Positions 2,464-43,464 of a DNA stretch of 64,000 nucleotides are shown here, piece after piece. Source of the stretch: Stegostoma tigrinum (taxonomy: Eukaryota). The stretch is from assembly GCF_030684315.1 (NCBI RefSeq), contig NC_081366.1, positions 7,440,001 to 7,504,000 on the forward strand, read 5' to 3'. The translations under genes were made by a program, and so were the position numbers. How positions within the stretch are numbered: position 1 is the first letter of the stretch; the number at the start of each line of letters is the position of its first letter. A model generated the notes under the pieces. It was not told where the DNA came from. It searched no databases and saw only the letters and a program-made list of their open reading frames with translations.

Positions 2464-2563
2464 GGGGGAGGGGGTAGATCTCCTGCAACGTTTCAGCTCC
2501 TAATTGGTACACAGCGACGCAGGCAGCCTGGTGCAACAGTGGGATCAAATTATTCTTAAAGCT
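2464..2563 (-). promoter_or_regulatory. Pcdh promoter module of gene A (CSE/CGCT box + CCAAT)
   Basis: Plus-strand GATC 2477, ATTGG 2503, AGCG 2513, CTTAAAGC 2555; same module found upstream of all five genes. Confidence 0.85.
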
Positions 2564-3323
2564 TGACTGTCAAAATAATATTCCCCTGATGGAAAACAAC
2601 GAGAATTAACACTATGCAACTAAAATCTTTTGGTCGGCATAGGTAAGTGTAATTTTGTTTCTAGAAAAGATTTGTAAAAACGACATTTCAGTTTTGGACT
2701 GCTACATCAAGTAATTGGACAATTTGTCAGTTCACTATGACTGAGGATTTCGTGAGTTCATTGGCAGTATCCAACAGATAATAAACAGAAAAGCGTCAAA
2801 CTAGAAACTTGTTTATTGCTATTCTGTAGAAGCAATCAGAACAATTCCACTTTCTCCCTCCAAAATGTCAAAACATCTTGTTTGAATTTTTGGCATTCCA
2901 CATTGGATGCATTGAGCACAGTTATTTGGCCAAGTGGTGAAAATGCAAATGCTTTATATATGTATGTGTATGTAAATGTAAATCTGTATTTAACTTAGCA
3001 GTGTACATTTTTTTAAAACACCTTTTTTTTCTAGAATATGAAAAGAGCTCAACGACAGAGCCATGGATTCATGATCAATAATGGCAGAGAAGAAGGCAAT
3101 TTATCCCAGAGATTCTAGGCTATCCCACCTGCAGCTCAATGCCCATTAGATTACAAATTTATTTCTCTCTGGTGCCCTCCAATTTGCTTAGCAAAAAAAT
3201 TAATTGTTTCTGCTTGCATTGTGTAGGGAGTGCTAGGTGACTTCCATTTATCCATGTATAAAAGATGCAATTTTAATATTCTACCCGCATATTTGGGCCA
3301 ACAATAGACCCATGCCCCGAAGT

Positions 3324-3620
3324 CGGCATGGCGGCTCAGTGGTTAGCACAACTACCTCACAGCACTGGCAACTTGTGTTTGCTTCCAGCCTTGGGCTGTA
3401 TGTGGAGCTTGCACACACTCCCCTGTCTGCTTGGGTTCCCTTCGGGTGTTCTGGTTTCCTCCCCCACTTTCAAAGATGTGTAGGTTAGGTGCATTGGCCG
3501 TGCTAAATTGTCCATAGTGTTCAGGGATGTGTAGATGAGCTGGATTATAGGGGTGGAATGCTGTGAGGGACAGTGTGGGCATGTTGGGCCAAAGGGCCTG
3601 TTTCCACACTGTAGGAATAT
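3324..3620 (+). mobile_element. HE1/V-SINE-type tRNA-derived SINE
   Basis: A-box head GGCGGCTCAGTGGTTAGCAC, central GGTTTCCTCCC...CAAAGATGTG core, CR1-like tail GGCCTGTTTCCACACTGTAGG; copies at 21165, 37670, 45107. Confidence 0.85.
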
Positions 3621-3639
3621 TATAATGATAGGCCCTTTT

Positions 3640-4850
3640 CATTAACAGTGATAGGGAGAGATGTCCTGGCCTATCCTACTCAAACTCCGGCATGATTGGT
3701 TGTAATTTTCTCAAAATCTCCCTTGTTCTCAGGACAGGAGCACCAAATAGTCCAGTCCAGCTCTGATTAAAATTCCACAGTCTTCTGCAATCTCTCAAAT
3801 TCTCACTCTGCCTTCCTAAAATGTGATTGGCAGAACCTGGCATATTTCTGCTGTTCGAGCTTTATCAATGCCATCCATATGCTCTCTTTACTTCATGGAT
3901 TCCAAGAAGCGATGAGATTCATTAAACATTGTCTCAATGCATCTTGTCACCTTCAAACATGAATTGCACAATATTTCTATACATTGCATTGGATTTGACA
4001 TAAGCCTGCTCATTTGATAGCCTATTTATATCATGTTGCAAATGATGCATATTATCCTTAACGTTGGTCATGCCTCCATGTTTGACATAAATGACAAGTT
4101 GAATTTCTGATCTGCATTTAAAAACGTAAGAGATAAGAAATAAAGCACAGTTCCTGCACTTGTTTGTTGGCAAAATTGCTTATCTCCTTCCAGATGGAAA
4201 ACTACCAATTACTGTGGGTTTTTTCCACATTTTTTCATACAGCTTCTCATCCAACTGGACTGCAGTCCTTCAGTTCTATTACCTCAAGTTTGGTCATGAT
4301 TCTTGCTGTCAAATGCTTCTTTAACATACGTGTAGAGAACGTCCAATTGAGCAGCAGAGAACAGCGTTTTCTATGGTTTGACTGATGCATTAAATAAAGT
4401 AAGTTAGCATGAGAAACCTTTTACAATCATGTGCAGATTCCTTAATTACATCAGACTCTGCAAAGTTTCTGTTTTGTTCCCCTGAATATTGTTCACAATA
4501 CCATTCCCACTATGTAAGTTAAACTATCTATCTGTTATTGCTAGAATTGCCCTTACATCCCTTCTCGACAAGGCCACATTTGACACACTGCAAACGCTCT
4601 TGTATTTTCCCCATGGACAAGGAGGGGATGGGAGATTATGAAAATCTCTCTAATTACCTCCAACTTCACTTCCTTCAGAAACTTGGATTTCAAGCCATAT
4701 GAATTTGATGAGTTACCTATCCTAAGAACAGCCAGCTTTTCAAGTACTTCCTGTCTTTAATTTTCACTCTATCCATTGTCTCTGCGTGGACACACTTCTG
4801 CAGTCATTTTGTCAGATTTCTCTTGGCACAGTTCGAAGTCTAATTTCAAA
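3640..4850 (-). mobile_element. Old degenerate CR1-like LINE fragments
   Basis: Patchy reverse-strand similarity to the RT and 3' portions of the CR1 copy at 58675-61968. Confidence 0.5.
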
Positions 4851-5071
4851 GATCGCATCTGACTTTCCTCATTGAGCATAAAACATACTGATCAAACGTT
4901 CTCCAGAACTCATTTCTGAAATGTGATTCCTTCATTCCTTTCACTCTAACATTATCCCAAGTAATTCTAATATAATTAAAGTCTCCTTTGCCCTACCCTA
5001 CGTCAAGTAGCACTGCTGCATAGGGAAAGATTGTGTACATAGATGGTTTGTGTAAGAATTTAGAGTTATTC

Positions 5072-5424
5072 TTATTATTCATTCATTGGATGAGGACATC
5101 ACTGGCTACGCAGCATTTATTGCCCATCTCTAATTGCCCAGAAGGCAGTTAAAAGCCAACCTCATTGCTGTGGGTCTGGAGTCACATGTAGGCCAGAGCA
5201 AGTAAGGATAGCAATTTCTTTTCCTGAAGGACATTAGTGAACCAGATGGGTTCCTCCAACAATTGACAATAGATTCATGGTCGTCATTAGACTCTTAATT
5301 GCAGATATTTATTTACTTCAAATTCGACTATCTGCCGTGGCAGGATCCAAACATGCACACCCAGAACATTATCTGGGTCTCTGGATTAATAGTCCAGCAA
5401 TAACACCATTAGGCGATTACCTCC
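5072..5424 (-). mobile_element. DeuSINE/SacSINE-like SINE
   Basis: CATTGCTGTGGGTCTGGAGTCACATGTAGGCCAG core and ATTTATTGCCCAT tail; related pieces at ~24590-24780, ~35500-35600, ~47500-47760. Confidence 0.7.
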
Positions 5425-5427
5425 CCA

Positions 5428-5455
5428 TTAGATAGATAGATACATAGATACATAC
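5428..5455 (+). repeat. (GATA/CATA)n microsatellite
   Basis: TAGATAGATAGATACATAGATACATACA. Confidence 0.7.
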
Positions 5456-6699
5456 AGGTATACATCGAGACTTTTGTTTTTGACCAACCATTTGATGTAA
5501 TTTTTTTTCACAGACCAGGAACATAGAAATTTGAAGTGTTTGAGGTTTTTCCTCAGCACTGAAAAGCATATAAAATGATTGATTTAGTTATTAAAACTGC
5601 ATTGAAAACAATCAAAATTATCAGGATTTTACATCTATTCTTGAGCAATTGTACGGAACCATCGGTAGCTTGATCAGTTTGCTCAACCATGTAAACTTCC
5701 AATGAAATTAGCAAAGACGTTCCAGAAACTACTCATGCAAATCCATACACAACTTTCAACATTTACAGCCTTCTCCATCTATCCTTATTAAACTTTTTTT
5801 CTCAAGTCACCTAGCATTGCATCCTTATTGGTTAAACTGTCTTTCGTCCTAAATACATCAAGATTATATTAAAGAGATTACATTCTACATGCTCCGGTAT
5901 CTATAATATGTTTATCTTCACTCAGTCTATTACTTTCTTCAAATCTCTCATTACTCTAACAGTTCTCACCTCCTCCCCCTTAAATCCAAGCACTGTAAAC
6001 ATGGGCATCAAGAACAGCTAAAATCATAAAATCTGGCCAGAAAATGTGAAGAAAATATAGACAATGATTTCCAACAACAAAATTGCTCAGTTTTTGAAGG
6101 TCTTCCGGAATTCAACTTATATTATCTACGTTTTTTACAGTAACTATCCTTCTTAGGCCATTCTCCCTCTCCTGTTCGCCAATCTATCATTCTCCTCTCT
6201 CAAGATACTCCTAAACATCTTCCACTTTTTATAAAGCATTTGGTCATCTTTACTAAGTTCTCAGCCTATGGCTGGTACAGAAAATGACCATCAATATCTT
6301 TTTTATTGATAAAATCTTTTTTTAAAGTTGTTGGAATAATAACTGAAAAGTATTACATTTTGCATTGATTTAGTGGTGGTGGTGGTGTTGTAAAATCGTA
6401 TCATTTTTAGCCAAAATCTGAGGGTCGTGCATGACCAATCCTGGGTATGCCTGCCCTCTGATTGGACTGACCAATTTTTTTAAAAACTGGAAGAAAATGA
6501 CTCTGGGATTCTTAAACTTTGGCTCTTCTTTCAGCGTCATGGTATAAGGTCAGCAGTGGGCAGTAAAAAAAAACTTACTGTGTTTCAAATTTCCACCTAT
6601 TCCCTTCCCTGTTCTGGGGATTCAAAAACCCTGCATGTTTGACATCATTTACCACAAGTGGGAGGGTATTGCGTATAGCTCTTGTAGTATGCATAAATA

Positions 6700-9649: not shown

Positions 9650-12037
9650 TTAATTCATCACATTGGCGCCCCGGACATTCGCTTCTTTGAATGGCATGGT
9701 CGGATGATAGGGCTTCAGAAACAGAAAGTCACTTTTCGATGATTCTGGAGATAAACAGATGGTGTAATGGTAACCTTCATTTTGAACAGGCCCAGCATAA
9801 TTTAATCGCTCGTTTGGAGAAGGTCTATGATAAGAACTACCATTCCAGCTGCTACTCCTGTGACAAAGTTCGCTGGAGTTACATGTTTCAGCAATACTGC
9901 CGTCTTGTCTAAACTTCAAGATGACGAGAACAATTATGGCAACAAGAAACAGAAACGATGTCGATCCTAAAATAATAATTAAGTAACGATTAGGTACCGA
10001 AAAATATTCTGATAATCTCGGTTTGTCACTGGGTTCCGATGATTTGTCAGTAACATTGGCTCCGATTATAAAGGAGATCGTGGCGGTGCTGGAGAGACTT
10101 GGCTGTCCATTGTCCTTCACAAGGATAATTAGCCTTTCTGCAACGATTTCGTGTTCTCTGATATTTTGTGTTGCTCTAATTTCACCAGATAGATGACCCA
10201 CAGTAAATATTCTGGAATCAGTGCCCTCCAACACTTGGTAGGATAGTCGTGCATTTTGTCCGGAATCGGCATCAGTGGCGATTATTTTGCTTACGAGGGA
10301 CCCTGGATGTACCACCTGCGACTTAATCTCCAATAATGCTGAACTGTTCCACATTAGGGGTGAGGTAATAACTGGTGCGTTGTCATTTTGATCCAAGATT
10401 ATAACATTCACGGTGGCAGTGCTACTCCGTGAGGGCGATCCCGCGTCCTGGGCTTCAACTTGGATCTGGAAATGTTTCAATCGCTCATAGTCAAAGGAGC
10501 GAAGTGAGTAAATATTACCATTTTTGGAGTTAATTGTGACATATCCAGGACCCTTTTGCATACGATTCTCCGAAATAGAATACGCCACGTCACCATTCTT
10601 GTCTGAATCAGAATCAAAAGCGGTAACTGCAAATATAGAAGCACCAGGAGCGTTGTTCTCCATCAGATAAGCGTTATATGACGATTGTGTGAACCTCGGT
10701 GCATTGTCATTGATGTCAGAAAGCTCAATCAGAATAGTTCTATGGGCTGAAAGCGTGGGCGTACCCTCGTCCCAGGCTGAGAGAGAGATGTTGTAGAATG
10801 ACACTGTTTCTCGATCCAGAATATTGCGTGTTAACAATTCAAATTTATTCCTTGAAGACTTTTGCAGTTTAAATGGGCCATCCCTAAGAACTTGACAATG
10901 AACTTGTCCGTTTTGCTCCGAATCTAAATCTGTAACGGTGACGACAGCTATCACCGTCCCGGGTGCAGTATCCTCAGAGACCGTGCTGGATACCGACGTT
11001 ACGTCTATCACGGGAAAATTGTCATTAAGGTCAAGTAGATGAACCATAACTTTGGCATGCCCTGCCAATCCAGGTACAGCGCTATCCACAGCTTGTACAT
11101 CCAGTTCATAAACAGTTGTTTCTTCAAAATCTAGTACCCCTTCAACTCGAATCTCTCCATTGTTCGGTTCTAATGTGAACAACTCGCGAATCCTTTCGGA
11201 AACGTGATGTGTAAAAGAATATGTTACCTCAGCGTTCGTACCCTCATCCAAATCGACCGCGCTGATTGTTGCCACCAAGGTACCTTTAGCGCTGTTTTCT
11301 GCTAGAGTCGACTTGTATATTTCACGATCGAATAAAGGTGCATTGTCATTGATATCCACGACCATAATAGTCAGTCGAGCCGTGCCAGATCTGGGAGGAA
11401 TTCCACCGTCGAAAGCTGTCAGTGTAAGATGAAAGGTAGATTGCTGTTCACGGTCTAATGACTTGTCTAATATCAACTCAGCACTCCTACTCCCATCACT
11501 TCTGATCTGCACTTTAATATAGAAATGGTCATTTGGACTGATCTGATAAGTGCTGATCGCGTTTGTCCCTACGTCCGGGTCGTGCGCGCTCTCGAGAGGA
11601 AAGCGCGCCCCTGGTGCAATTAGCTCACTGATTTGCAAAGAAAATTCGGCTTTGGAAAATTGCGGTGAATTATCATTAACGTCTAGTATCTCCACTACAA
11701 CTCGATGCATTTCTAACGGATTATCTAGCGCTATTTCAAAAGAAAGAGAACAGGTAGAGCTCTGCCTACAAATCTGTTCTCTGTCGATTCTTTCATTAAC
11801 AAATAAAATCCCATCTTCCAGATTTACCTCAATATATTTTTTTCTCTCACTGGTCACAAGCCGACATTTATGAACTGACAATTCCCAAGCTTCGCGTTTT
11901 AAATCCTCCGTGATCTTCCCAACAAAGGCCCCGCGCTCCAGTTCCTCGGGGATCATGTAGCGAATCTGTCCCCTAACCAGGTCCAACACGCAAAGCAGGC
12001 AAATAAAGGACATTCCGCCCTTCCGCGTATTCGCCAT
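9650..12037 (-). CDS. Clustered protocadherin, gene B (795 aa; signal peptide, 6 EC repeats, TM, short tail)
   Basis: Intact ORF with PEE, DRE, DxNDNxP and AxDxD cadherin motifs, TM YLIIILGSTSFLFLVAIIVLVIL and tail motif YHYTICLSPESSKSDFLFLKP. Confidence 0.96.
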   Translation of the reverse strand: MANTRKGGMSFICLLCVLDLVRGQIRYMIPEELERGAFVGKITEDLKREAWELSVHKCRLVTSERKKYIEVNLEDGILFVNERIDREQICRQSSTCSLSFEIALDNPLEMHRVVVEILDVNDNSPQFSKAEFSLQISELIAPGARFPLESAHDPDVGTNAISTYQISPNDHFYIKVQIRSDGSRSAELILDKSLDREQQSTFHLTLTAFDGGIPPRSGTARLTIMVVDINDNAPLFDREIYKSTLAENSAKGTLVATISAVDLDEGTNAEVTYSFTHHVSERIRELFTLEPNNGEIRVEGVLDFEETTVYELDVQAVDSAVPGLAGHAKVMVHLLDLNDNFPVIDVTSVSSTVSEDTAPGTVIAVVTVTDLDSEQNGQVHCQVLRDGPFKLQKSSRNKFELLTRNILDRETVSFYNISLSAWDEGTPTLSAHRTILIELSDINDNAPRFTQSSYNAYLMENNAPGASIFAVTAFDSDSDKNGDVAYSISENRMQKGPGYVTINSKNGNIYSLRSFDYERLKHFQIQVEAQDAGSPSRSSTATVNVIILDQNDNAPVITSPLMWNSSALLEIKSQVVHPGSLVSKIIATDADSGQNARLSYQVLEGTDSRIFTVGHLSGEIRATQNIREHEIVAERLIILVKDNGQPSLSSTATISFIIGANVTDKSSEPSDKPRLSEYFSVPNRYLIIILGSTSFLFLVAIIVLVILKFRQDGSIAETCNSSELCHRSSSWNGSSYHRPSPNERLNYAGPVQNEGYHYTICLSPESSKSDFLFLKPYHPTMPFKEANVRGANVMN

Positions 12038-12259
12038 TGTTCTGTGTTGGATTTTGCGATTTAAAAATCGAAATCTCTGCCCAGCGAAGAGATAACCAGG
12101 AACGTGGTTCTACAGTGAAGACAGTCGCTGATACTAAACCGAAAAATGCGAATAATTGGCCAGATTTGTATCGCTGAAAATAAGCGCAAATACGATCACA
12201 GCATCTGTTTTTCACTCGTTCTCCTTCTCTTCTTCGACTGTGTTTGCGTTTCTCTGAAT

Positions 12260-12355
12260 GGGAGGGCCCGATCTCTTGCAGTGCCCGGACACCTAATTGG
12301 TAGACAGCGACGCAAACAGTTTTAACCAATAACTGCAATGAGGTTCCTTAAAGCT
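12260..12355 (-). promoter_or_regulatory. Pcdh promoter module of gene B
   Basis: GATC 12270, ATTGG 12296, AGCG 12306, CTTAAAGC 12347. Confidence 0.85.
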
Positions 12356-14249
12356 GGACAGTTTCGGAATAATTTATAGTTGAGAAAATATTTAACATCA
12401 TGAGACCAAAATCTTTAGATACGTATTGATTGAGTCACTCTGTTCGTTCAAAAAAATCTGTACGTTTGTTTTATTTTCCAGTATGCTACTGTTCAGCATG
12501 CAAAGAAGTTATTTAACACATGCATTTTGCCGTTTGATTTTTTTTTCTCTGCTCCCTGACGTGTATGATAGCTTAGCGATGGCTGTCACGGTCATCACAG
12601 AGCAGAAGCTGGGGAGCACTGTTAAGTCTGTTGCAGGTATCAGTCATCCTCATTTAGATGGTACTGCCCAGATCATATAGTACAGAAATTATTTGGGGCG
12701 TTTTGCGGACGAATATTACCAATGATATTACAGGATATTATGTATTTCAAGCAGATCCTTAACCCGAAGATATCAATGTGGAGGCTGGCTTATCCAGAGT
12801 GCGCATATTAAAACAAAGAAGTCTCAACTTCCTTCCTCTTGTTTCACTGTGCTTGACGTCACTCTTGTTTTCCTTGCCTTGAAGTATCCAAAGTTTTTGA
12901 ATGGACAGCTACATATTAAACAACGAATTAGAAACTATAAATAGTTTGCTCTATTCAGTTGAAAGTTATGTTTCGTTGGAGTTACTTTAGTAAAAATGAA
13001 GAAGAAAGGGACTAGTTAAACATGATCAATGTGCAGCCAGCAAGCAATGATTATGCACATCGTACATATTTTATTCAATTCATCAGAGGAGAGTACGATC
13101 ATTACTGCATAGTAGCGATTTATATTTAATTAACACGAAAAGGTATGACAATTGCTAAAACTGAAACGATTGAATAGATTGTTTTCTTTTTTCATTTGCT
13201 CAGAAATATAAATATTGGATAATATTTTTCCTTTGTTTTATAATTTATCAGTATTAGTTAATGGATTATTTGCAAGTCTGCTGAGATTGTTCCAAGTATG
13301 TAAAATGGAAAAAGGGGATAATTTGATTGTGATAATTGATTTAATCAGGGCTATTGATAAAAGCAAAAAGTGGAAAGAGTGTGTAAACGCTGGGAAGTCA
13401 AGGACCTAACTGTTGAATTCACGACAGAACAAATAGAACAGATTTCAGTTTCTTGCAAACTTTCTACCAGAAGCGCACCTTTAGATTCTAGTAGATCCGC
13501 AGTCGTATTTTTATGTTGTAATTCTAAGTGTAAAATTAATGGAATGACTAGTCATTTAGTGTGAAGTGTACATAAAGTTCTGAAGTCGAATGCTGAATTC
13601 CCAGTTGCTGGCAAACATGATTAGGATTATTGAAATGTTTTGCAATCACATTTTACCCAACACATAAATGATTTAAAATAAAGTTGATTTTGTGAGAGAT
13701 ATACAGTGATTTGGCTGATCACGGGAAGAAATCAAATAATGTCCGAGGCTGCCGAATACAAATAACTGATTACTGTCGCTACTGAAGTTTCTAATGCCAG
13801 GATTTTGCCTGTGAGAGCTTGCTATATTTGTCAATAGCTCTAGAATCATTACATCTTCGTGATTTTTTTTTCTTCTTAAATGTCCACTTGCTCTACCGCT
13901 GGCTTGTTGTCACTGAAATATTCATTATCTAAAATATGCAATGCAGGAATTCCCCAACATTTTTTCTTTGAAGCTCAACTGACAGTAAGGAAAAGAACTG
14001 CAGCAGCGTCAGAACACCATCGCTGTCAAACGCTTCTGCATCAGCCTCTCTTGTGCTTATATTACCAATGATTTTTTTCTACATGTGATGAGATCCTGCA
14101 ATGCCTTGAGTACTGAACTTCAATGCTGAATGTTTAAAGTAAGTGGAGGAGAAGCATTGGAAGATTTGTTGGTATTTCCCTCTGTAAACCTGAAAGCTGG
14201 CTTTGATGAAACAGCATGAATACAATTGAACACATTGCATGGGGGTTAG

Positions 14250-14340
14250 AGATAACAAGGTGTGGAGCTGGATGAACACTGCAGGCCAACCAGCATCTTA
14301 GGAGCAGGAAAGCTGACGTTTTGGGTTGAGATCCGTTTGC
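14250..14340 (-). mobile_element. Penelope-like terminal-repeat fragment (degenerate hammerhead)
   Basis: GATAACAAGGTGTGGAGCTGGATGAACAC...GCTGACGTTTTGGG matches the end of the Penelope element at 52010-52140. Confidence 0.7.
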
Positions 14341-15049
14341 CGTCGATTGGTCCCACTTGCCCCGAAATGTGAAAAAATAGGATGAATGAATTGAAGCACA
14401 AAGAAGCCCCAAACAAAATAGTCAATAAGAATCAGAGGGGAGATCTTCGCTTCTTCAGCACAAGGAAACTTTGGCTCTGGTAGTTGGAAGTCAGCTATAT
14501 GAATTCCAGGACATCTGTTGATATGGTTCATTCCCTGTGGTTTTGCTGCCACATCCTTGTGGGTCCTATGCAGTGATGGTCTGTTTCAGCATGTTCAGAA
14601 TTGTCAGTAGCATTGAAGGCCCAGCCCTGGATTCCAATGACCCAGGCCAGCGGTGTCTTCGGCAATGACTTTAATTCCTTAAGTCAGTTTCTGCATGGCA
14701 TTCTAGCTGGCATAGTGGTCTACTTGAGTGGTAGTTTCAATGTCGAGATGGGCCTTCACAATAGCATCTGTGGCGACTTCGGTGGTGTGGTGGTCTGGTC
14801 TACGATTCCAATAGTTCCAAAATCGGTGGCTTTGATATTGGCTTTCTGCAGCAGTGGAGAGTTTGACTCCTGTCTTTTCCTCGACTTTGGAAACCCAGTA
14901 GAAGTTAATTGAAAGGAAAGATGGACTTTGCCTTAATTTATATATACACATGATTTCTGTGATTAATATTGCCACTGGAGTATGGCGACTTAAACAATGT
15001 TGACTGTAGTTTTTGTTAAAAAAAATACATTGGGTTGTATCCTAAACTG

Positions 15050-17600: not shown

Positions 17601-17619
17601 TTTTATTCTTTGTACAAGG

Positions 17620-25245: not shown

Positions 25246-27608
25246 CTACTCTGGCAAAGTTGAAATAAAAGGCTTCAAGTACAAAAAATCAGTCTTAGAA
25301 GATTGTGGAGACAAACAAACCGCATAACGATACGGGTCAGCGTTGGGACCAAATTCGCCAACACCAGGAGAATTTAAAGGATCTGTTGGTCCAGTTCGCT
25401 CATTACACGAATAATCTAAATCGTCCCGTGTGCAGCAGCATACTGCGGATTTGTAATCTTCATTGATATTTCTATCCTGTTTACATTTGATTCCAACTAG
25501 GAAAATTATAGTCACAAGAAATATTAACGTAGTCGAACCTAAAGCCACGATTAAATAGAGATTTAAATCGGATATATCTTCAGGATTTCTAGCAAAGCTT
25601 TTACTTTCAGAGAATTGTTCTGTAACATTAGCCAAGATTGAAAGGATGATTGTAACAGTGCTGGAGAGACTTGGCTGCCCATTGTCCTTCACCGAGACCA
25701 CTAACCGTTGCCTGGAGGCGTCTTGCCCCAAAATATTTCGGGCTGTTCTGATTTCTCCAGAGTTAGGCGCTACAGTGAACAGTGGGTTTTAGGACTTGAT
25801 AAAGCAGTCGTGCGTTCTGACCTGAATCAGCGTCTTTGTAACCAAATAACCCTGGCCCGCTGACTGAGGCGCGATCACCTCCGCTGCTAATCCATTCTGG
25901 GGTGAGGGTGAAACGATGACTGGAGCGTTATCATTTTGATCCAGGATAATCACATTGATTGTTGTACTGCTGTTTAGTGAAGGAACTCCAGCATCACGGG
26001 CTTGAACTCGGATCTGAAAGCTCTTCACTTGCTCATAGTCAAAACAGCGCAGGGCGTAAGCGTCGCCATTATTTGAGTCAATACTGATCAAAGAAGATGC
26101 TGGTAGATCTTGGATCTTGGTTTCCATTATGTCATAGGAAACAAATGAATTCCCGTCCACGTCTGCATCCAGAGCAGTGACTTTGAAAACCGATGCACCG
26201 GGCTCATTGTTTGCCATCACGTACACCGTGTACGACATCTGGGTAAATTGTGGCACATTATCATTCACATCAGAAACCGAAATCCGGATGGTTACATTTG
26301 TTGATAGTGGGGGAGATCCAGAATCTCTTGCTAAGAATAATATGTGATAATTGGAAACTGTTTCGCGATCCAGCAAGCCGCTTGTAATGAGTTTGTAATG
26401 GTTACTGGAAGATTCTTGAAGCTTAAACGGGATGAGCTTTGAAATCTGACAGTTTACTCGCCCGTTTTTACCAGAATCCTGATCCATTACATTGATCAAT
26501 GATATCAAAGTTCCTGGCGCAACATCCTCTGAGAGAGTGATGGATACTGGTGTTACCTTTATCTCAGGGGCGTTGTCATTCACATCAATGACCTTAATGA
26601 GGACTTTGGAATGTCCGGTAATTGAGGGTGAGCCGTTGTCCACAGCTTGTACATCAAGTGAATAACTGTTTGCTTCTTCAAAATCGACCTTTCCTTGCAC
26701 TTTGATCTCGCCCGTTTTGGGTTCAAACGGAATAATTCTCTCACTCGTGGAGAGGCAAGTTTGCTGAAAGAATAGGTTACTTCCGCATTCGAGCCTTGGT
26801 CCAAATCATTGGCGCTGACCTTGATCACCAAGGTTCCCCTAGGTGAGTTTTCTGCTAAGCTACTCCTGTAAATTGTACGATCAAAAACTGGTGAGTTATC
26901 ATTACTATCCAGAACGGTAATGAGGATCTGAACGGTACCAGACCTGGGAGGAGTCCCACCATCATTGGCAGTCAATACGAGCTGAAAGGACTGATCCTGC
27001 TCGCGGTCCAGAGCTTTCTTCAACAGTAATTCGACAATTTTAACGCCGTCCTCCATAGTCTGCACATTTAGGCCGAAATACTGGTTGGAACTGATTGTAT
27101 AAGCAGTGACAGTATTTATTCCAACGTCCGGATCCTTCGCACTCTCGAGTGGGAAGCGTGCCCCTGGTGCAATTGATTCGGCCATGTGGAGGGTAATGCT
27201 GCTATCCGTGAAACGGGGCGCATTATCATTTATATCCAAAATCTCCACTTCACCACGATAAATCTCGAAAGGATTTTCTACTACCACTTCAAAAGGAAGA
27301 ATACATCTAACGACTGGTCCACAGATATGTTCCCTGTCGATTCTTTCGCGAATGGATAAATCCCCATTATCCGCACTAACCTTCATATACTGGCTTCCAG
27401 TATCAGAGGCGATTCGGAATTTGCGAGCTGACAGTTGCCGTGTGTTCAATCCCAAGTCTCGAGCGACATTCCCAATTAAAGCATCTGGTTCCAGTTCCTC
27501 AAGAAGCGAATAACGAATTTGTCCAAAACTCAAATCTGGTGTACTTATCAGAAAAATCAAAACGAGCGTTTTGATTGCTAAGGCCTCATTGCTCTGTAAA
27601 TTCGCCAT
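25246..27608 (-). pseudogene. Clustered protocadherin gene C, disrupted
   Basis: Three ORF pieces (27608-26580, 26700-25789, 25731-25246) together rebuild a full Pcdh. Versus paralogues: 1-bp loss in the T-run at 26715-26718, ~13-bp deletion at ~25834, ~11-bp deletion at ~25780, in-frame TAA at 25789-25791. Confidence 0.88.
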
Positions 27609-27785
27609 TGTTCTGGACTGAATGTTTTACTAAGCCAGGCCTGTCGTCTATTAAACGGCAGTCTAAGCATAAATTATATACACCAAAGTAGAATGTATAA
27701 AGTTGCGATTTTGATCTCGTCTCCGCAACCTAGACAGAGGAAATGCTCTCTTCTGTGGTAGACCCTGGTCTCTGGCAGTGATGAG

Positions 27786-27883
27786 GGAGGGACGATAGAT
27801 CTAACGCTGTATTTGACTTTCTTATTGGTACACAGCGACACAACCAGCCCTTTTCTACAATTACATCAACATTTCTTAAAGCT
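27786..27883 (-). promoter_or_regulatory. Pcdh promoter module of gene C (intact)
   Basis: GATC 27798, ATTGG 27824, AGCG 27834, CTTAAAGC 27875. Confidence 0.85.
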
Positions 27884-28415
27884 AGTATGTCCTCGTGTAT
27901 GTTTAAAATTGGACAACCGTAAAATCAACGGGGTCGGCTTACTTTGGAATATCACCTTCAAAGGCTACTAAAATCGTTTTAAAGCGTAATTTATCATAAA
28001 AATGTGGAACTGTTTACTAATTCACGGCCAAAATAATAAGTCATCACCATTTGGTACCGAATAAATCACGTGGGCCATCTTCTTCAAATATGATTCCAAA
28101 AATCTGGAACTTAGGAATCTCAGAAAAATGAAAGGCCCATAAACAAAAGACACAGATGTCAAAAATGGTCTTCTAATAAGTTAAGAATATGTAATTATCT
28201 TGGCTTGTTTGATGCATTTGTTTCCAGATCACGTCTCATTAATAATCCGAAAGCCATGTCCCTGATAGGCATGCTTCAGATTCTAGATATTCAAACTGAA
28301 GCTCAACTTTCAGGCAAATTGACAGGAACGCTAGAAGAATCTAAGGAAAATCCAAAACACAACCAAGTAACTTTGAGGATCCACATTAAAATCCATGAAC
28401 AAAGGTGTGGCTGAT

Positions 28416-28505
28416 AGATAACAAGGTGTAGACCTGGAAGAACACAACAGGTCAAGCAGCATCAGCAGGAAAGCTGATGTTTCGGGTCTAGACATTACTT
28501 CAGAA
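28416..28505 (-). mobile_element. Penelope-like terminal-repeat fragment
   Basis: GATAACAAGGTGTAGACCTGGAAGAACAC...GATGTTTCGGGTCTAGAC...CTTCAG. Confidence 0.7.
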
Positions 28506-29612: not shown

Positions 29613-31997
29613 TTAGTGATGCCCCTGTGGCAAGGTAGGATTGCAAGGTTTTAGGAACAAAAAATCAGTCTTGGATGATTCTGGTGATAGACAGACAGTA
29701 TAACGATAAGTGTCAGAGATGGGGAGAGTTTGTCCACAGTAATTTTCAGAACCTTTTGGCACTGGTCTTTGACTATATCCATCAATGGAATCCTCTGGCT
29801 TATAACAACATATTGTGGGATTGCTTTCAGAAAAGTTCTTGTCTTGTTTGCATTTTATGCCCAAAAGTACAATGATAATTACAAGTAATAAAAACGATGT
29901 TGATCCTAATGTGACGATCAAATAAAGATTTAAGTGGGAAAATTGTTCAGTATCCCTGATTAAGTCGTTGCTTTCTGAAGATATTTCAGTAAGGTTGCCA
30001 AAAAGCAACAAGACGATTGTAGCGGTGCTGGAGAGGGTGGGCTGTCCATTATCCCTCACCAAGATGATCAGAGATTGAGTGGCTGCATCTTGCTCCAGAA
30101 TGCCACGGGCTGTTCTGATTTCGCCCGTGTTAAGCCCCACGTTGAACAATCTGGGGTCAGTGGCTCTCACTACCTGGTAGAATAGCCGTGCGTTCTGACC
30201 AGAATCGGCATCAGTTGCGATTATCTTGGTGACCAAATAATTTTGTCCCGCTGACTGAGGGACAATCACCTCTGCTGCTGATCCACTCTGTGCTGAGGGT
30301 GAAACGATGACTGGTGCGTTGTCATTTTGATCCAGGATAATCACATTGACTGTTGCGCTGCTGCTCAGTGGAGGAATTCCAGCATCACGGGCTTGAACTT
30401 GGACCTGGAAGCTCTTCACTTGCTCATAGTCAAAAGATCGCAGTGCGTAAATGGTCCCGCTCACCGAATTAATTTTAAGGTAGGTAGACGCCGGCGAATC
30501 TCGAAGGATCTCTTTGAAAGAATAAGAGACATAGGAATTCTGATCCACATCGGGGTCGGTCGCAGTAACTGTGAAAATAGAAGCACCTGGCAAGTTATTC
30601 TCTGTCACATAAACTGTATAAGTGCGTCGTGCAAACATTGGAGCATTATCATTTTCGTCAAAAACAGAAATCTGGACGGTTTTATTTGATGATAGTGGGG
30701 GCCTCCCTGAGTCCCAGGCTAAAATAGATAGGTTATATCCAGGAGTAACTTCGCGATCCAGTGACGCAGTGGTTATCAGTTTATAATGGGTACTTGAAGT
30801 TGTTTGAAGTTCAAAAGGAACTTTCTTCGGGACTTCACAGTGCACCTGTCCATTTTTTCCACTATCACGATCTATTACGTCGATCAAAGCGATTACAGTC
30901 CCAAGAGTAGCACTTTCTGGAATTATGCTAACCACAGACGTCAATAAAATTTCAGGGGCATTGTCATTCATATCAATTACCTTAATCATGACTTTGCAAT
31001 GTCCTGAAATTGCAGGTGAACCATTGTCCACAGCTTGAAGATCTAGCGAATACGTGTTGCCTTCTTCATAATCAATTATGCCATTGATTCTAATCTCTCC
31101 TGTTCGCGGATCCAAACTGAACAATTCATGTACTTTCTTTAAAACACGGTTACTGAAAGTATAGGTTACCTCAGCATTAGAACCTTCGTCTGGATCAGTG
31201 GCACGGACTGTAGCCACCAAGGTACCCCTGGGTGCGTTCTCTATCAGGTCGACCCTGTAAATTTTGCGATCGAATACCGGCGCGTTATCGTTGCTGTCCA
31301 GCACCGTAATGAGAATGCGAGCAGTCCCGGATCTGGGAGGACTCCCTCCGTCGGTAGCTGTCAGCATCAGCTGAAAGGATGACTGGCTTTCGCGGTCCAA
31401 CGGTTTCCCCAACAACAGCTCGACAATTGTAGCACCGTCTTCGGCAGTCTCCGCTTGTAGACTGAAGTGTGCATTTGGGCTCAGGTTATAAGTCGTGACT
31501 GTATTTATGCCCATGTCTGGATCGAGAGCGCTCTCTAGCGGAAATCGGGAGCCTATAGCAATGGATTCCGCCATTTGTAAGAGGATGGTATTCTCCCGGA
31601 ATCTGGGCGAATTATCATTGATATCAATAACCTCCACTTCACCGCGGTACATCTCCAAAGGTTGTTCTACTACAATCTCAAATGGAAGAACACAAACTGA
31701 TATCTGTCCACACAGTTCCTCTCGATCTATCCTTTCCTTAGTAAATAAAATACCCGTCTCCATATTCACCTCCAGGCACTGTCTTTTACTAGCAGACGCC
31801 AGCCGGAATTGTCGAGCTGACAGCCTGCGAATGTCCAATCCTAAATCCTCTGCGACATTTCCAACGAAAGAGCCAGGTTCCATTTCCTCGCGAATGGAGT
31901 AGCGAATATTTCCGAAAGCCAAGTCTGACAAATGTACAAGTAACATTAAATTGAATAGTTTGTATTTTAAGGCGGTGATGCATGATGGCCCTGCCAT
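29613..31997 (-). CDS. Clustered protocadherin, gene D (794 aa from ATG 31997)
   Basis: Intact ORF. Likely start MAGPSC at 31997 in the shared ACAATGG context. Six EC repeats, TM, tail YRYTVCLSPESSKTDFLFLKP. Confidence 0.95.
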   Translation of the reverse strand: MAGPSCITALKYKLFNLMLLVHLSDLAFGNIRYSIREEMEPGSFVGNVAEDLGLDIRRLSARQFRLASASKRQCLEVNMETGILFTKERIDREELCGQISVCVLPFEIVVEQPLEMYRGEVEVIDINDNSPRFRENTILLQMAESIAIGSRFPLESALDPDMGINTVTTYNLSPNAHFSLQAETAEDGATIVELLLGKPLDRESQSSFQLMLTATDGGSPPRSGTARILITVLDSNDNAPVFDRKIYRVDLIENAPRGTLVATVRATDPDEGSNAEVTYTFSNRVLKKVHELFSLDPRTGEIRINGIIDYEEGNTYSLDLQAVDNGSPAISGHCKVMIKVIDMNDNAPEILLTSVVSIIPESATLGTVIALIDVIDRDSGKNGQVHCEVPKKVPFELQTTSSTHYKLITTASLDREVTPGYNLSILAWDSGRPPLSSNKTVQISVFDENDNAPMFARRTYTVYVTENNLPGASIFTVTATDPDVDQNSYVSYSFKEILRDSPASTYLKINSVSGTIYALRSFDYEQVKSFQVQVQARDAGIPPLSSSATVNVIILDQNDNAPVIVSPSAQSGSAAEVIVPQSAGQNYLVTKIIATDADSGQNARLFYQVVRATDPRLFNVGLNTGEIRTARGILEQDAATQSLIILVRDNGQPTLSSTATIVLLLFGNLTEISSESNDLIRDTEQFSHLNLYLIVTLGSTSFLLLVIIIVLLGIKCKQDKNFSESNPTICCYKPEDSIDGYSQRPVPKGSENYCGQTLPISDTYRYTVCLSPESSKTDFLFLKPCNPTLPQGHH

Positions 31998-32170: not shown

Positions 32171-32271
32171 GGAGGAGGAGCAATAGATCTCCACCGGTAT
32201 TTGTGACCCTCATTGGTCTGCAGCGACACAGCGAGTCTCTGTCTCTAATTACACCAATTATCCTTAAAGCT
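32171..32271 (-). promoter_or_regulatory. Pcdh promoter module of gene D
   Basis: GATC 32186, ATTGG 32212, AGCG 32222 (second CAGCGA at 32229), CTTAAAGC 32263. Confidence 0.85.
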
Positions 32272-32754: not shown

Positions 32755-32897
32755 TTTGAATCAAGGGTTATGGGGATAAGGCAGGAACAGGATACTGATT
32801 GTGGATGATCAGCCATGATCATAATGAATGGTGGTGCTGGCTCGAAGGGCCGAATGGCCTACTCCAGCACCTATTGTCTATTGTCTATTGTCTATTG
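32755..32897 (+). mobile_element. CR1 3' end with (CTATTGT)n tail
   Basis: GATCAGCCATGATC...GGCTCGAAGGGCCGAATGGCCTACTCC followed by CTATTGT repeats. Confidence 0.8.
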
Positions 32898-37669: not shown

Positions 37670-37983
37670 TTAGAATCCCTACAGTGTGGAAACAGGTCCT
37701 TCAGCCCAACAATTCCACGCCGACCTTTGGAGCACCCCATCAGGCCCATTTCCCTATAACCCCCTAGTGTACACATCCCCGAACACTATGGGCAATTTAG
37801 CGTGGCTAATCCACATAGCCTGCCTACCTTTGAGCTATGGAAGGAAACCGGAGAAACTGGGGAAAGCCTACGCAGACGTGGGGAGAACGTGCAAACTCCA
37901 CACAGACAGTCGCCCAAGAGTGGAATCGAACCCAGGTCCTTGGTGCCGTGAGGCAGCAGTGCTAACCACTGAGCCACTGCACA
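37670..37983 (-). mobile_element. HE1/V-SINE-type SINE inside an old Penelope-like relic (~37430-38480)
   Basis: Reverse complement of the SINE at 3324; flanks resemble decayed Penelope ORF sequence. Confidence 0.8.
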
Positions 37984-40220: not shown

Positions 40221-40786
40221 TAATGGGCGACATTTAACAATTAAGATAAAAGAAAATGCAAATATAAGAACATAAATTCATATTGATATTACACATTAAG
40301 ATTGTATATTCTGAATTGTTTATAATATATTTTTGCATCTAGTCATACTGCTACACCAGACGCAAGTGGGCCAGTTAACACTCAAGGAACAGGAAACTGG
40401 ACTAAACAGCCTTTATCGTTATTCAAAAAAAAATCCATTAGCTAGATTAATATCAAAAAAGAAGATATTCAGCCAATTACATCCAAATAGAAAAGGATCC
40501 TAATATACCTCCCTGCAAAATAATTGGAGTATTGGTTTATCAACTTGCGTAGGGATTGATTCACAATGACTGGCAGAGGAACTCCACTGCAATCCTAACA
40601 GCATTTTATCCAACGGCGCCTTCTTTCCTTTACAATATGCCTGTGGATTTATATTATAGCTTTTTTTGCAATGTAATAGATATAAAAAGGAATGAATTCT
40701 CTTGCTTTCCAAGTGGACAGAAGTAAATCAGAGCTTTTATCAAGAATACAAAACTATTGACCTTGAATTCACCACAATTGTATCAC

Positions 40787-43180
40787 TTAGCATTGCCCTT
40801 GAGGCACGAGTGGATTGCAGGGCTTCAGGAACAAAAAATCGCTCTTTGATGATTCCGGAGACAAGCAAACCGTGTAATGGTAGGTTTCAGGGAAAGGAAT
40901 GTTTTGTCCAGTTCCGCTGTAGTTTAAAGAGTTTGTTGGCATAGAAGCCCGACTAAAGGTTTCTTTCGCATCCTTTCGGCTGCAGCAACAAACCGGGGAC
41001 CAACCGTCTGGAACATCGTCCCTCTCCTGGTGGCACTTTAGGACAACCAATAAAACAATGATTACAAGAAATATAAGCGAAGTTGAACCGAAAGCAGCGA
41101 TCAAATAAAGGTTTAGATTGGAGGAGTAGTTCGGGGTACTGATTAAATTATCGGTGTCCGAGACTTTTGCACTAACATTGGCCTGGATTGACAAGAGGAT
41201 TGTTGCCGTGGCGGAGAGACGGGGCTGCCCGTTATCTTGCACCAAGATGACAAGATTGTGAGTACTGCCATCCTGTTCTAAAACGTTCCGCGTTGTTCTG
41301 ATCTCCCCTGAATTGCTTGCGACAGTGAAGAAAGTAGGATCAGTTGATCGAACGATCTGGTCGGAGAGCCGTGCGTTCTGACCTGAATCAGCGTCTATTG
41401 TGATCATCTTTGTAACCAAGAAACCCTGGCCCGCTGACTGAGGCGCGATCACCTCCGCTGCTGATCCGCTCTGTGCTGAGGGTGAAACGATGACTGGGGC
41501 GTTGTCATTTTGATCCAGGATAATCACATTGAGTGTTACGCTACTGCTCAGCGGAGGAACTCCAGCATGACGCGCTTGAACTCGGAGCTGAAAGTTTTTG
41601 ACTTTCTCGTAGTCAAAAGACCGCAGCGCATAAATGGTCCCGTTCACTGAATTAATATTGAAGTATGTGGAGACTGGCGATTCTTGAAGAATTTGTTTGA
41701 AGGAATAAGAGATATAGGAATTCTGATCCAGATCACGATCAGATGCAGTCACTGTGAAAATTGAAGCACCCGGGACGTTGTTCTCCATTACATACTCTGT
41801 ATATGTGCGCCGAGCAAAACTTGGGCCATTATCATTGACATCAGAAATCGAGATCTGAATAGTTTGATTTGATGATAATGGAGGAGATCCCGAATCCCAA
41901 GCTAAAATAGGTATGTTATATTCAGGGGTAGTTTCACGATCCAACAAGCCACTTGTAATCAGTGTATAATGATCATTCAAAGAAGAAAGAAGTTCAAATG
42001 GGAATTCCTTAGGAATCTGACAGCGAATTCGTCCATTTGCTCCAGAATCGCGATCCGTTACATCGATCAAAGCTACCACTGTCCCGGGCTTTGCATCTTC
42101 TGGGACCTTACCTGACAATGAAGTTAGCTTTATCTTAGGGGCGTTATCGTTTATATCAATTAGTTTGATCAATACTTTAGAATGTCCTGCGATTGCTGGT
42201 GAGCCACTATCCACGGCTTGAACGTCGAGTTCGTAACTGTTTGCTTCTTCAAAATCCAACAGTTTTTCAACTCTGACCTCGCCAGTATCTTGGTCCAAAC
42301 TGAACAGTTGACGCACTCTCCGAGAGACAAGTTTACTGAAAGAATATGTTAACTCTGCATTGGCGCCTTGGTCTGGATCGAGAATGTTGATCTTGATCAC
42401 GAAGGTACTTGGGGGAGCATTTTCCACCAAGCTCGCCCAGTACACTTCCTGCTCGAACACAGGCGCGTTATCATTGATGTCGAGCAGATTAATGTTGATT
42501 TGCATTGTCCCAGACCTTGGAGGGGACCCACCATCAAAGGCTGCTAGTACCAGCTCAAAGGTTGGCTGCTGTTCTCGGTCCAAGGGTTTCTCTAACAGTA
42601 ACTCTGCCAGCTTAGTCTTGTCCTCCCTTGTTTGCACGTTTAATCTGAAGTGCTCATTCGGACTGAGTTTGTACGTGGTGACTGCGTTTGTTCCCACGTC
42701 CGGATCAAGCGCGCTCTCTAGCGGAAAACGCGAGCCTGGCGCAATGTTTTCTGCTATTTGTAAAAGAAGGGCACTCTCCGGAAAAATGGGCGAGTTATCA
42801 TTAATATCAATAACCTCGACTTCACCGCGGTACATTTCCAGAGGATTTTCTACTATTATTTGAAAAATCAGAATACATATAGGGATTTGTGCCCACAGCT
42901 GTTCCCTGTCCATTCTTTCATAAACAAACAAAATGCCATTTTCCAGATTTACTTCTAAATGCTGTCTTCCGTCTACAGATACAAGGCGACATTTTCGAAC
43001 TGACAGTTGCCGAACATTTAGTCCTAAATCTTCAGCGATGTTCCCAACAAAGGTACCATATTCCAATTCCTCTGGAATAGAATACCGAATCTCTCCAAAA
43101 ACTAGATTAATTCTACAAAGCAAGAAAATAAAAGTCAACGCCTTAATCACAAAAGCTGTGTTGCTTTGTAGATTCGCCAT
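40787..43180 (-). CDS. Clustered protocadherin, gene E (797 aa; open but possibly decaying)
   Basis: Intact ORF with six EC repeats, TM and YHYTVCLSPESSKSDFLFLKP tail; several conserved residues substituted (see findings). Confidence 0.93.
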   Translation of the reverse strand: MANLQSNTAFVIKALTFIFLLCRINLVFGEIRYSIPEELEYGTFVGNIAEDLGLNVRQLSVRKCRLVSVDGRQHLEVNLENGILFVYERMDREQLWAQIPICILIFQIIVENPLEMYRGEVEVIDINDNSPIFPESALLLQIAENIAPGSRFPLESALDPDVGTNAVTTYKLSPNEHFRLNVQTREDKTKLAELLLEKPLDREQQPTFELVLAAFDGGSPPRSGTMQININLLDINDNAPVFEQEVYWASLVENAPPSTFVIKINILDPDQGANAELTYSFSKLVSRRVRQLFSLDQDTGEVRVEKLLDFEEANSYELDVQAVDSGSPAIAGHSKVLIKLIDINDNAPKIKLTSLSGKVPEDAKPGTVVALIDVTDRDSGANGRIRCQIPKEFPFELLSSLNDHYTLITSGLLDRETTPEYNIPILAWDSGSPPLSSNQTIQISISDVNDNGPSFARRTYTEYVMENNVPGASIFTVTASDRDLDQNSYISYSFKQILQESPVSTYFNINSVNGTIYALRSFDYEKVKNFQLRVQARHAGVPPLSSSVTLNVIILDQNDNAPVIVSPSAQSGSAAEVIAPQSAGQGFLVTKMITIDADSGQNARLSDQIVRSTDPTFFTVASNSGEIRTTRNVLEQDGSTHNLVILVQDNGQPRLSATATILLSIQANVSAKVSDTDNLISTPNYSSNLNLYLIAAFGSTSLIFLVIIVLLVVLKCHQERDDVPDGWSPVCCCSRKDAKETFSRASMPTNSLNYSGTGQNIPFPETYHYTVCLSPESSKSDFLFLKPCNPLVPQGQC

Positions 43181-43365
43181 TGTGCCGACGGTGGGTTGTT
43201 GTGGAAATTCTCAAAAATATTTCAGGGCAAGAATTGGCTTCAGCGCGATAAATGAATCTACCAGCCAAATTTACAAACAGTCGTTTTAACACTCCGAAAA
43301 TCTCTCCACAATGTAATGTGCTGCAACTGACAATTCGTTTTCAGCCAGCTCTCCTTCTATGTTGA

Positions 43366-43464
43366 GGAGGGGCAATGGATCTCCCGCTGCATCTGAGCTT
43401 CTTATTGGTAGACAGTGAGACAACGAGTTCCTGCCATTGACTGAGCATTTCCAATCTTAAAGCT
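43366..43464 (-). promoter_or_regulatory. Pcdh promoter module of gene E (CGCT box mutated to CACT)
   Basis: GATC 43378, ATTGG 43404, AGTG 43414, CTTAAAGC 43456. Confidence 0.8.

Follow-up and report, generated by a model that had tools for sequence, protein, structure and literature searches.

A Fixed-Spacing Promoter Module at Clustered Pcdh Exons of Stegostoma tigrinum That Resembles a Weak CTCF-Binding Element

Introduction

The CSE of mammalian and frog clustered Pcdh promoters lies about 200 bp upstream of the ATG (PMC4978886). All the cPcdh CTCF sites of the mouse have been reported to carry weak core motifs, many of them with an upstream U motif (PMC11217373). The sequence on the 5′ side of the CSE differs from gene to gene in human PCDHA and yet is bound by recombinant CTCF fingers; insertions of 5, 10 or 15 bp abolish promoter activity, and the co-partner at this promoter was termed undetermined (PMC3333863). 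Moreover, mammalian Pcdh alpha genes have an exonic site (eCBS) about 700 bp downstream (PMC7811963). The CTCF core and upstream motifs are identical in lamprey, chicken and human (PMC5504073), so that sharks are bracketed by animals using the same motifs. Sharks have been reported to lack the alpha subcluster, and a CGCT element had already been described in the Pcdh cluster of the elephant shark (Yu et al. 2008, as stated in PMC2926608).

The window analysed here, a single stretch of 64,000 nucleotides from Stegostoma tigrinum, contains five Pcdh variable exons, A to E (Table 1), and no further Pcdh remnant was found in it. Vertebrate clustered Pcdh variable exons are large, lie in tandem and code for six cadherin repeats followed by a Cadherin_C_2 tail; accordingly, exons A, B, D and E show Pfam Cadherin_2, five Cadherin stretches and Cadherin_C_2. 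The nearest named relatives of the exons are shark and ray Pcdhs, exon E being 85% identical to its nearest full-length named relative, from Chiloscyllium plagiosum. Domains and relatives thus agree with the initial annotation of these promoters as belonging to shark clustered Pcdh genes. The reading frame of exon C is disrupted by a frameshift near 26721-26739 and by an in-frame stop codon at 25789-25791, so that C would be either a pseudogene or an assembly error.

Table 1. Positions of exons, promoter modules and exonic CTCF-like sites in the window
Feature	Position	Strand	Remarks
Pcdh variable exon A	1..2259	-	extends past window end
Pcdh variable exon B	9650..12037	-	reading frame intact
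Pcdh variable exon C	25246..27608	-	broken
Pcdh variable exon D	29613..31997	-	reading frame intact
Pcdh variable exon E	40787..43180	-	intact
Gene A promoter module	2464..2563	-	AGCTTTAAG 2555-2563; CTCF-core position 2513-2527
Gene A boxes		-	CCAAT 2503-2507; AGATC 2477-2481; then CCTCC tract
Gene A U position	2539-2544	-	without U motif, 3/6
Gene B promoter module	12257..12355	-	AGCTTTAAG 12347-12355; core 12306-12320
Gene B boxes		-	CCAAT 12296-12300; AGATC 12270-12274
Gene B U motif	12332-12337	-	TGCAGT, 6/6
Gene C promoter module	27785..27883	-	AGCTTTAAG 27875-27883; core 27834-27848
Gene C boxes		-	CCAAT 27824-27828; AGATC 27798-27802
Gene C U-like motif	27860-27865	-	TGTAAT, 5/6
Gene D promoter module	32173..32271	-	AGCTTTAAG 32263-32271; core 32222-32236
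Gene D boxes		-	CCAAT 32212-32216; AGATC 32186-32190
Gene D U-like motif	32248-32253	-	TGTAAT, 5/6
Gene E promoter module	43365..43464	-	AGCTTTAAG 43456-43464; core 43414-43428, CACT variant
Gene E boxes		-	CCAAT 43404-43408; AGATC 43378-43382
Gene E partial U	43440-43445	-	CTCAGT, 4/6
Exonic forward CTCF-like site, D	31526..31544	-	score 12.5; FPLESA codons; 695 bp downstream of CGCT box
Exonic forward CTCF-like site, E	42709..42727	-	score 10.6; 704 bp downstream of CGCT box

A Module of Boxes with Rigid Spacing

The five promoters share sequence blocks, the spacing of these blocks, conservation beyond the neutral level and CpG-rich surroundings. A module of five boxes with fixed spacing before every Pcdh gene was the central claim of the initial annotation, and it holds in all five genes, where the blocks AGCTTTAAG, CGCT, CCAAT, AGATC and CCTCC are all present. 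Counted from start to start, as are all box distances given here, the plus-strand GATC (at 2477, 12270, 27798, 32186 and 43378) is followed after 26 bases by ATTGG and after another 10 by AGCG/AGTG in every copy; from there, CTTAAAGC is 42, 41, 41, 41 and 42 bases away (A to E). The GGAGG tract stands 10, 9, 12, 12 and 12 bases ahead of GATC, whereas the distance from ATTGG to the ATG varies as claimed (244, 259, 216, 215 and 224). Read in the sense of the genes, the CGCT box (CGCT in four copies, CACT in E) lies 228-272 bp upstream of the ATG, with the CCAATNAG box starting 9 bases after the C of CGCT. No copy shows a net indel between CGCT and AGATC, yet the stretch from AGATC to the ATG has five different lengths (193-237). 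CCTCC and AGCTTTAAG are displaced by 1-3 bases among copies, the former shifting by 3 (offsets 44-47).

A four-block pattern occurs five times on the plus strand and never on the minus strand, with about 1e-7 occurrences expected in the 64-kb window, an expectation that speaks of non-randomness only, the pattern being derived from the same five sites. With a leave-one-out matrix, the omitted promoter reached 36-56 bits and the next best position of the window at most 6.1; the matrix scan found no orphan copy of the module in the window, and no Rfam match was found there either. The paralogues share 0.84-1.0 identity over the CGCT, CCAATNAG and AGATC blocks (0.90 for CCAATNAG and 1.0 for AGATC, with 0.58 for the 5′ half of the CTCF-like site), compared with 0.26-0.27 in the flanks and 0.34-0.57 at fourfold-degenerate sites. 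Since the blocks exceed both, they are under selection, and the claimed constraint on their spacing is likewise upheld. The divergence of the spacers stood only in part: offsets -37..-29 (0.28) and +17..+21 (0.32) are at background, but -22..-12 (0.40) and +22..+33 (0.49) stay above it, and an invariant G occurs within the spacers at offsets -18 and +30. Over the 600 bp downstream of the box, CpG observed/expected is 0.73-1.28, versus 0.53 for the window.

The CCAAT box agrees with an NF-Y consensus, in which CCAAT has purine-rich 5′ and SRG 3′ flanks, at 8, 8, 8, 10 and 8 of 10 positions (A to E), and is therefore compatible with NF-Y, as had been proposed. It is the best of 600 registers, a rank that adds little since the CCAAT letters belonged to the original finding.

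The CGCT Core as a Possible CTCF Site

The bases preceding CGCT do not match CCASYAG, in agreement with the initial annotation, and 8-9 of the 15 IUPAC positions of the core are satisfied. On a standard CTCF matrix, the cores of A to E score -5.2, -8.6, -4.4, -4.6 and -14.8, all negative and far below the threshold of 8 used for skate, hence the core is non-canonical. The forward CGCT register ranks first of 600 on this matrix, narrowly (-37.6 versus -40.0 for the second). C2, G8, C12, C14 and T15 of the CTCF core are matched in all five copies, G10 and G13 in four and G11 in none, and both the ZF3-4 half (GGC GCT) and the C at core position 2 were recognised. Positions 1, 3, 6, 7 and 11 mismatch in every copy, with an invariant non-consensus T at 3, 7 and 11 that could reflect selection for another protein. 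Direct binding of ZNF143 at the module was set aside, as ZNF143 does not bind human CSE probes (bioRxiv 2023.09.27.559875).

Two features had been overlooked in the initial annotation, a U-like hexamer at the CTCF spacing and exonic CTCF-like sites. The first is a TGCART-like motif 17 bp before the core, which matches at 6, 5 and 5 of 6 bases in B, C and D, and at only 4 in E and 3 in A; in a CTCF site with an upstream module, TGCART would begin 17 or 18 bp ahead of the core and face ZF10-11. Its offset of -28 was fixed by outside sources and not fitted here: the ZF3-11 crystal numbering sets the offset of the upstream motif (PMC10484683), and Module1 is reported to precede Module2 by 8 or 9 bp (bioRxiv 2023.09.27.559875). 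At this offset the motif ranks first of 184 upstream registers, be the query TGCAGT (20 of 30 matches, next 15), TGCAAT (21, next 15) or TGCART (23, next 16), and the U motif and core taken jointly place the forward CGCT register first of 600 (64, next 59, mean 33). If the copies are counted as a single draw from their ancestor, p for the U match is only about 0.012-0.025, for a motif spotted by eye before the test. At the ZF9 bases A(-11), C(-10) and C(-9), none of the 15 cells agrees, and a 9-base upstream motif does not put the site first among the registers of the two strands; the measured optimum for the upstream site is TGCAATACCC (PMC10287918). Paralogue identity of the U block is 0.48, no higher than that of the nearby spacers (0.40-0.49).

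The second feature, a forward exonic site, lies 695-721 bp downstream of the CGCT box in all five genes and scores above 8 in two of them, D and E; the homologous positions in A, B and C score 0.3, 4.9 and 3.7. Given the peptide, the codon choice at this site is unlikely (p 0.002 in D and 0.006 in E), and a shared strong exonic site anywhere arose in 25 of 5000 recodings. The site is in part a by-product of the protein, because FPLESA is the peptide most often seen at this place among sharks and rays (46 of the 77 named rows).

Possible Readings of the Module

We regard the module as probably the shark CSE, in the form of a weak CTCF anchor in forward orientation that is embedded, along with an NF-Y-like box, in a larger promoter of fixed spacing; the centre of the module looks like an already known weak CTCF-binding element and not like a CTCF-free switch. 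A low-affinity forward CTCF site would then sit in a promoter of about 100 bp with constrained spacing, where CTCF fingers 3-4 may read GTCGCT and finger 7 the C that never varies at core position 2. The TG(C/T)A(G/A)T hexamer, which precedes the core by 17 bp in B, C and D and in part in E, would be read by fingers 10-11. NF-Y would bind the CCAATNAG box, helping to keep the promoter open, with AGATC and AGCTTTAAG as putative binding sites for further factors. By analogy with mammals, CTCF binding at this tandem array of forward sites would be weak and methylation-sensitive, the stronger exonic site may assist in D and E, and cohesin loops from a downstream enhancer would pick promoters stochastically. 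A bolder and rather doubtful extension is that of a rigid 100-bp platform of cartilaginous fishes, perhaps of the jawed-vertebrate ancestor, in which promoter choice would come about as CTCF and an NF-Y-centred complex, including the AGATC and CTTTAAG binders, compete for the promoter or pass it from one to the other, or in which CTCF would be absent from the promoter and loops would form at the exonic sites. Since the crippled CTCF site directly abuts the NF-Y box, the two proteins would hardly co-occupy the promoter in such a contest.

The initial annotation had offered two modes of promoter choice, one independent of CTCF and one using it in a non-canonical way. In the former, NF-Y and other proteins would assemble with fixed geometry on CTTTAAG, TGYGTCGCTG, CCAAT and AGATC, the likeness to CTCF being a relic. 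The invariant T at three core positions, the negative matrix scores, the better conservation of CCAATNAG and AGATC than of the CTCF 5′ half, and a CGCT-AGATC stretch without net indels next to an AGATC-ATG stretch of varying length all argue for such an assembly. So does the in vitro finding that even the best upstream site fails to hold CTCF on a defective core, which is not rescued (PMC10287918), and the CGCT box has been lost from frog and zebrafish alpha promoters (PMC4978886), indicating that Pcdh promoters can vary. However, the mouse Pcdh promoters to which CTCF binds are reported to have weak cores as a rule (PMC11217373), the U hexamer keeps the CTCF spacing, the human promoter with spacing dependence was CTCF-bound (PMC3333863) and D and E carry exonic CTCF-like sites. 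An assembly of this kind is in our opinion unlikely, and CTCF-independent choice is poorly supported; the non-canonical mode fits better, although it has already been reported for mammalian Pcdh promoters, and the earlier interpretation as a whole is partly supported. Quite improbable in our view is that the spacing was mostly inherited from one ancestral promoter, with independent boxes, few indels and no stereospecific need, whether CTCF or another protein binds. The sample of only five related copies, the above-background identity of several spacers (0.40-0.49) and the mobility of CCTCC and AGCTTTAAG would fit such inheritance, but the flanks have decayed to background (0.26-0.27) and the 5′ UTR lengths all differ while the CGCT-CCAAT-AGATC spacing is identical.

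Two further readings concern the identity of the CGCT box. Read on the opposite strand, it could form the right half of a REST/NRSF silencer whose two halves are set 8 bp apart, in a non-canonical way, and which serves neuron-restricted expression; this we judge very improbable. The right half matches at 7-9 of 10 positions in all five copies, the left half is best of 600 registers exactly at the 8-bp gap (26/45, next 24), and the window contains a single match of 15/19 or better, in gene A (16/19). Pcdh clusters are reported to contain NRSEs, that of the elephant shark five, and sites with a gap of 7-9 bp are also bound (PMC8096226). Against this, the GGA triplet opening the right half, whose mutation abolishes binding, is present in none of the five copies, so that GGACAGCGMC with its GGA, and with TTCAGCACC as the left half 2 or 7-9 bases before it, was not found. 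The left half scores 8, 4, 4, 5 and 5 of 9 (A to E), thus only 4-5 in B-E, and in fugu there is no overlap between the NRSE motif and the CGCT element. Hardly credible is a CTCF site in reverse orientation, with a U-like motif at +24..+32 and a core running through ATTGG to CAGC: gene B does carry TGCAGTGCC at the U-like place, and this register comes second among the 600 when U and core are scanned together (59 versus 64), but its matrix sum is -97.5 against -37.6 forward, and in mammals the promoter sites face forward, finger 3 lying on CGCT (PMC7811963).

If the module is indeed a shark CSE with a weak CTCF anchor, weak-core, U-assisted anchors would predate the split between sharks and bony vertebrates, and the pair of promoter and exonic sites possibly as well, a modest addition to Pcdh evolution that leaves the CTCF model standing. 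CTCF ChIP-seq in sharks is reportedly part of the 2018 work of Hara, with the Pcdh cluster covered; our literature search, which left key shark papers outside, found neither a report of such data for shark clustered Pcdh genes nor a description of the flanking boxes. Only these boxes stay unexplained by the known CTCF-binding element, and the literature searched offered no description of mammalian promoters with invariant CCAATNAG, AGATC and AGCTTTAAG at constant distances. The boxes are the more useful part, since the shark module supplies three short candidate sites, open to mutation, for tracing the factors other than CTCF that switch on a Pcdh promoter once it is chosen.

Comparison with Known Systems

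At some CCAAT-box promoters NF-Y has stereo-positioned partners, as in the S-X-Y module of MHC class II genes. The shark module likewise has a CCAAT box at a fixed distance from other boxes, but by eye a conserved X-box-like sequence is absent at the matching place. The likeness to the mammalian CSE, especially to the weak, U-motif-dependent sites of Pcdh beta, is broader: a CGCT box about 200-270 bp upstream of each ATG in the same orientation, a weak core, a U-like upstream motif (in B, C and D) and a CpG-rich promoter. CTCF is bound at the mammalian element and would be predicted to bind the shark one, a likeness of layout and motifs. As in the mammalian Pcdh alpha pair of CSE and exonic CBS, a second forward CTCF-like site lies about 700 bp downstream in the coding exon, although it is strong in only two of the five shark genes. 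A CGCT promoter element is also reported for the elephant shark cluster, likewise of a cartilaginous fish. Finally, the human PCDHA SSE-CSE composite (PMC3333863) also combines divergent bases 5′ of the CSE with a spacing that matters for activity. CTCF is the bound factor there and the putative one in the shark. The upstream part of the human composite is gene-specific and a YY1 site lies 3′, whereas the extra boxes of the shark are common to all paralogues.

A fixed-spacing promoter module in the shark Pcdh array

The initial annotation had described a module of constant geometry before each of five clustered protocadherin (Pcdh) variable exons (A–E), and this module is real. Measured start to start, GATC to ATTGG is 26 bp and ATTGG to AGCG/AGTG 10 bp in all five promoters, with the outer box CTTAAAGC 41–42 bp after AGCG/AGTG. 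From CGCT through CCAAT to AGATC there is no shift among the promoters, and the length from AGATC to the ATG is different in all five. The AGCTTTAAG box and AGATC, the latter with a partly conserved stretch at +25 to +31 (sense-strand offsets, zero being the first C of CGCT), occur in every copy, and a CCTCC tract is a further part of the module. A pattern search placed it at the five promoters only, and a leave-one-out matrix gave each promoter 36–56 bits, against at most 6.1 at any other place. Spacer divergence had been overstated, as two spacers are still 0.40 and 0.49 identical. Paralogue identity reaches 0.84–1.0 in three central blocks, compared with 0.26–0.27 in the flanks and 0.34–0.57 at fourfold sites, which indicates selection on these blocks; that the spacing is inherited without function seems to us improbable.

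The central CGCT element itself is already known, having been described earlier in the elephant shark as stated in PMC2926608, and the module is a variant of the known conserved sequence element (CSE) of clustered-Pcdh promoters. For sharks, our literature search gave no account of the extended module, the upstream motif or the exonic site discussed below; Yu 2008, Hara 2018 and some supplements that may hold CSE alignments lay outside its reach.

The closest full-length named relative of exon E is a Chiloscyllium plagiosum protein (85% identity), and 77 of the 120 matches listed carry names of sharks, rays or chimaera. A tblastn search of 20 kb lying upstream of this exon found no additional Pcdh sequence. 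Gene C, which is either a recent pseudogene or an assembly error, keeps a complete module despite its frameshift and in-frame stop.

Features of the window (CTCF-like scores from a CTCF matrix)
Feature	Position	Strand	Remark
Exon A	ATG 2259	-	A–E as a group: large exons, Pfam make-up of clustered Pcdh variable exons
Exon B	ATG 12037, end 9650	-	Same Pfam make-up
Exon C	ATG 27608, end 25246	-	Frameshift near 26721-26739; in-frame stop 25789-25791
Exon D	ATG 31997, end 29613	-	Same Pfam make-up
Exon E	ATG 43180, end 40787	-	Same Pfam make-up
Gene C with module	25246-27883	-	
REST-like match, gene A	2492-2518	+	16/19, 8-bp gap
U motif TGCAGTGCC, gene B	12277-12285	+	Near-perfect; between CCAAT and AGATC
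CTCF-like site	47091-47109	-	16.7
CTCF-like site	48315-48333	+	14.8
Dispersed ~100-bp repeats	14240-14343, 28406-28503, 44389-44440, 47289-47392, 50487-50590, 52035-52138		Probably a retroelement end
GC-rich, strongly skewed stretch	51782-53490		Minus strand carries several long open frames that overlap; probably left over from a retroelement

A probable weak CTCF core and its putative upstream motif

Crystal numbering (PMC10484683) puts the first C of CGCT at position 12 in the 15-bp CTCF core. C2, G8, C12, C14 and T15 match in all five copies and G10 and G13 in four, with no match at positions 1, 3, 6, 7 and 11. With a CTCF matrix the cores score -4.4 to -14.8, short of the cutoff of 8 that was set for skate (PMC10115646), so the initial annotation rightly held that the CGCT boxes are not canonical CTCF sites. 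When scores from this matrix were summed over promoters, the forward CGCT register came top of 600 within 150 bp on both strands, by a narrow lead (-37.6, next -40.0, mean -151). CTCF in reverse orientation sums to -97.5, and we give it hardly any credence.

The upstream (U) motif of CTCF has its first base 17 or 18 bp ahead of the core (PMC10484683; bioRxiv 2023.09.27.559875), which corresponds to -28 or -29 here, and its measured optimum is TGCAATACCC (PMC10287918). At -28 we read TGCAGT in B, TGTAAT in C and D, CTCAGT in E and TCCCAC in A. This register ranks first of 184 upstream for TGCAGT (20/30, runner-up 15), TGCAAT (21/30, 15) and TGCART (23/30, 16), with p about 0.012–0.025 when related copies are taken as one draw. 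The evidence it offers for CTCF is moderate, since the match was spotted by eye before being tested, the copies are kin, finger-9 bases match in 0/15, gene A has no U motif, the opposite strand at +24 to +32 matches comparably, and in Spec-seq a strong upstream site did not rescue a defective core (PMC10287918). A and E, both without TG, are the same two copies in which the interval from AGCTTTAAG to the core is longer by one base. The opposite-strand U motif of gene B lies in that +24 to +32 stretch, partly conserved in the other four promoters.

CTCF-dependent or independent promoter choice

The non-canonical core had suggested that promoter choice could run independently of CTCF or through a non-canonical CTCF mode. 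The first inference is weakened, as all clustered Pcdh CTCF sites in mouse brain were reported to have weak cores, with binding too weak for default peak calling (PMC11217373); by analogy, a weak core need not imply a CTCF-free promoter, and we regard a CTCF-independent complex as unlikely. The same work reports that sites lost in a finger-11 mutant are rich in the U motif, and that a crystal structure of fingers 6–11 was solved on a Pcdh gamma-b7 CSE. Much less probable still is REST, reading the opposite strand: the match in gene A, overlapping CCAAT and CGCT, is the sole one of at least 15/19 in the window, and A is also the copy lacking a U motif, but the GGA triplet, essential according to PMC8096226, is absent from all five promoters.

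We consider it probable that every copy provides a CTCF anchor, weak, forward and containing CpG, within an NF-Y-type promoter, and that choice would then proceed by the mammalian loop model. From the observed sequence features we infer CTCF binding, looping and stochastic expression at shark promoters. The CCAATNAG box agrees with an NF-Y consensus at 8–10 of 10 positions; its first base is also the one that closes the finger-1 triplet, which would bring NF-Y very near to a fully engaged CTCF.

Exonic sites and comparison with known clusters

A scan with the CTCF matrix revealed two forward exonic CTCF-like sites, one in D (12.5) and one in E (10.6), both at ATG+453; scores at the homologous positions are weak in A (0.3), B (4.9) and C (3.7). 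With the peptide and the local codon usage taken into account, p comes to 0.002 in D and 0.006 in E, and 25 of 5000 recoding simulations produced a strong shared site anywhere. As D and E agree at 47% of their fourfold sites, the two cases are not independent. The peptide most often seen at this place is FPLESA (46 of the 77 named rows among the matches listed, with 9 lacking a pattern match). These sites support CTCF use in the cluster, short of proof. The highest CTCF-like scores in the window belong to a divergent pair of sites 3.7–4.9 kb upstream of gene E, at the end of the array, possibly a boundary; 4 of 100 simulated windows held two sites as strong.

Two further reports bear on why a weak core need not be CTCF-free. 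The core and upstream motifs that CTCF uses in lamprey are those of mammals too (PMC5504073). In human PCDHA, gene-specific sequence 5' of the CSE is bound by recombinant fingers, and insertions of 5, 10 or 15 bp abolish activity (PMC3333863). With stops at about 795 codons and no splice donor obvious by eye, B–E resemble single-exon beta-type Pcdh genes. The five exonic places, 695–721 bp downstream of the CGCT box, recall the exonic CTCF sites of mammalian alpha genes, likewise forward and about 700 bp downstream (PMC7811963).
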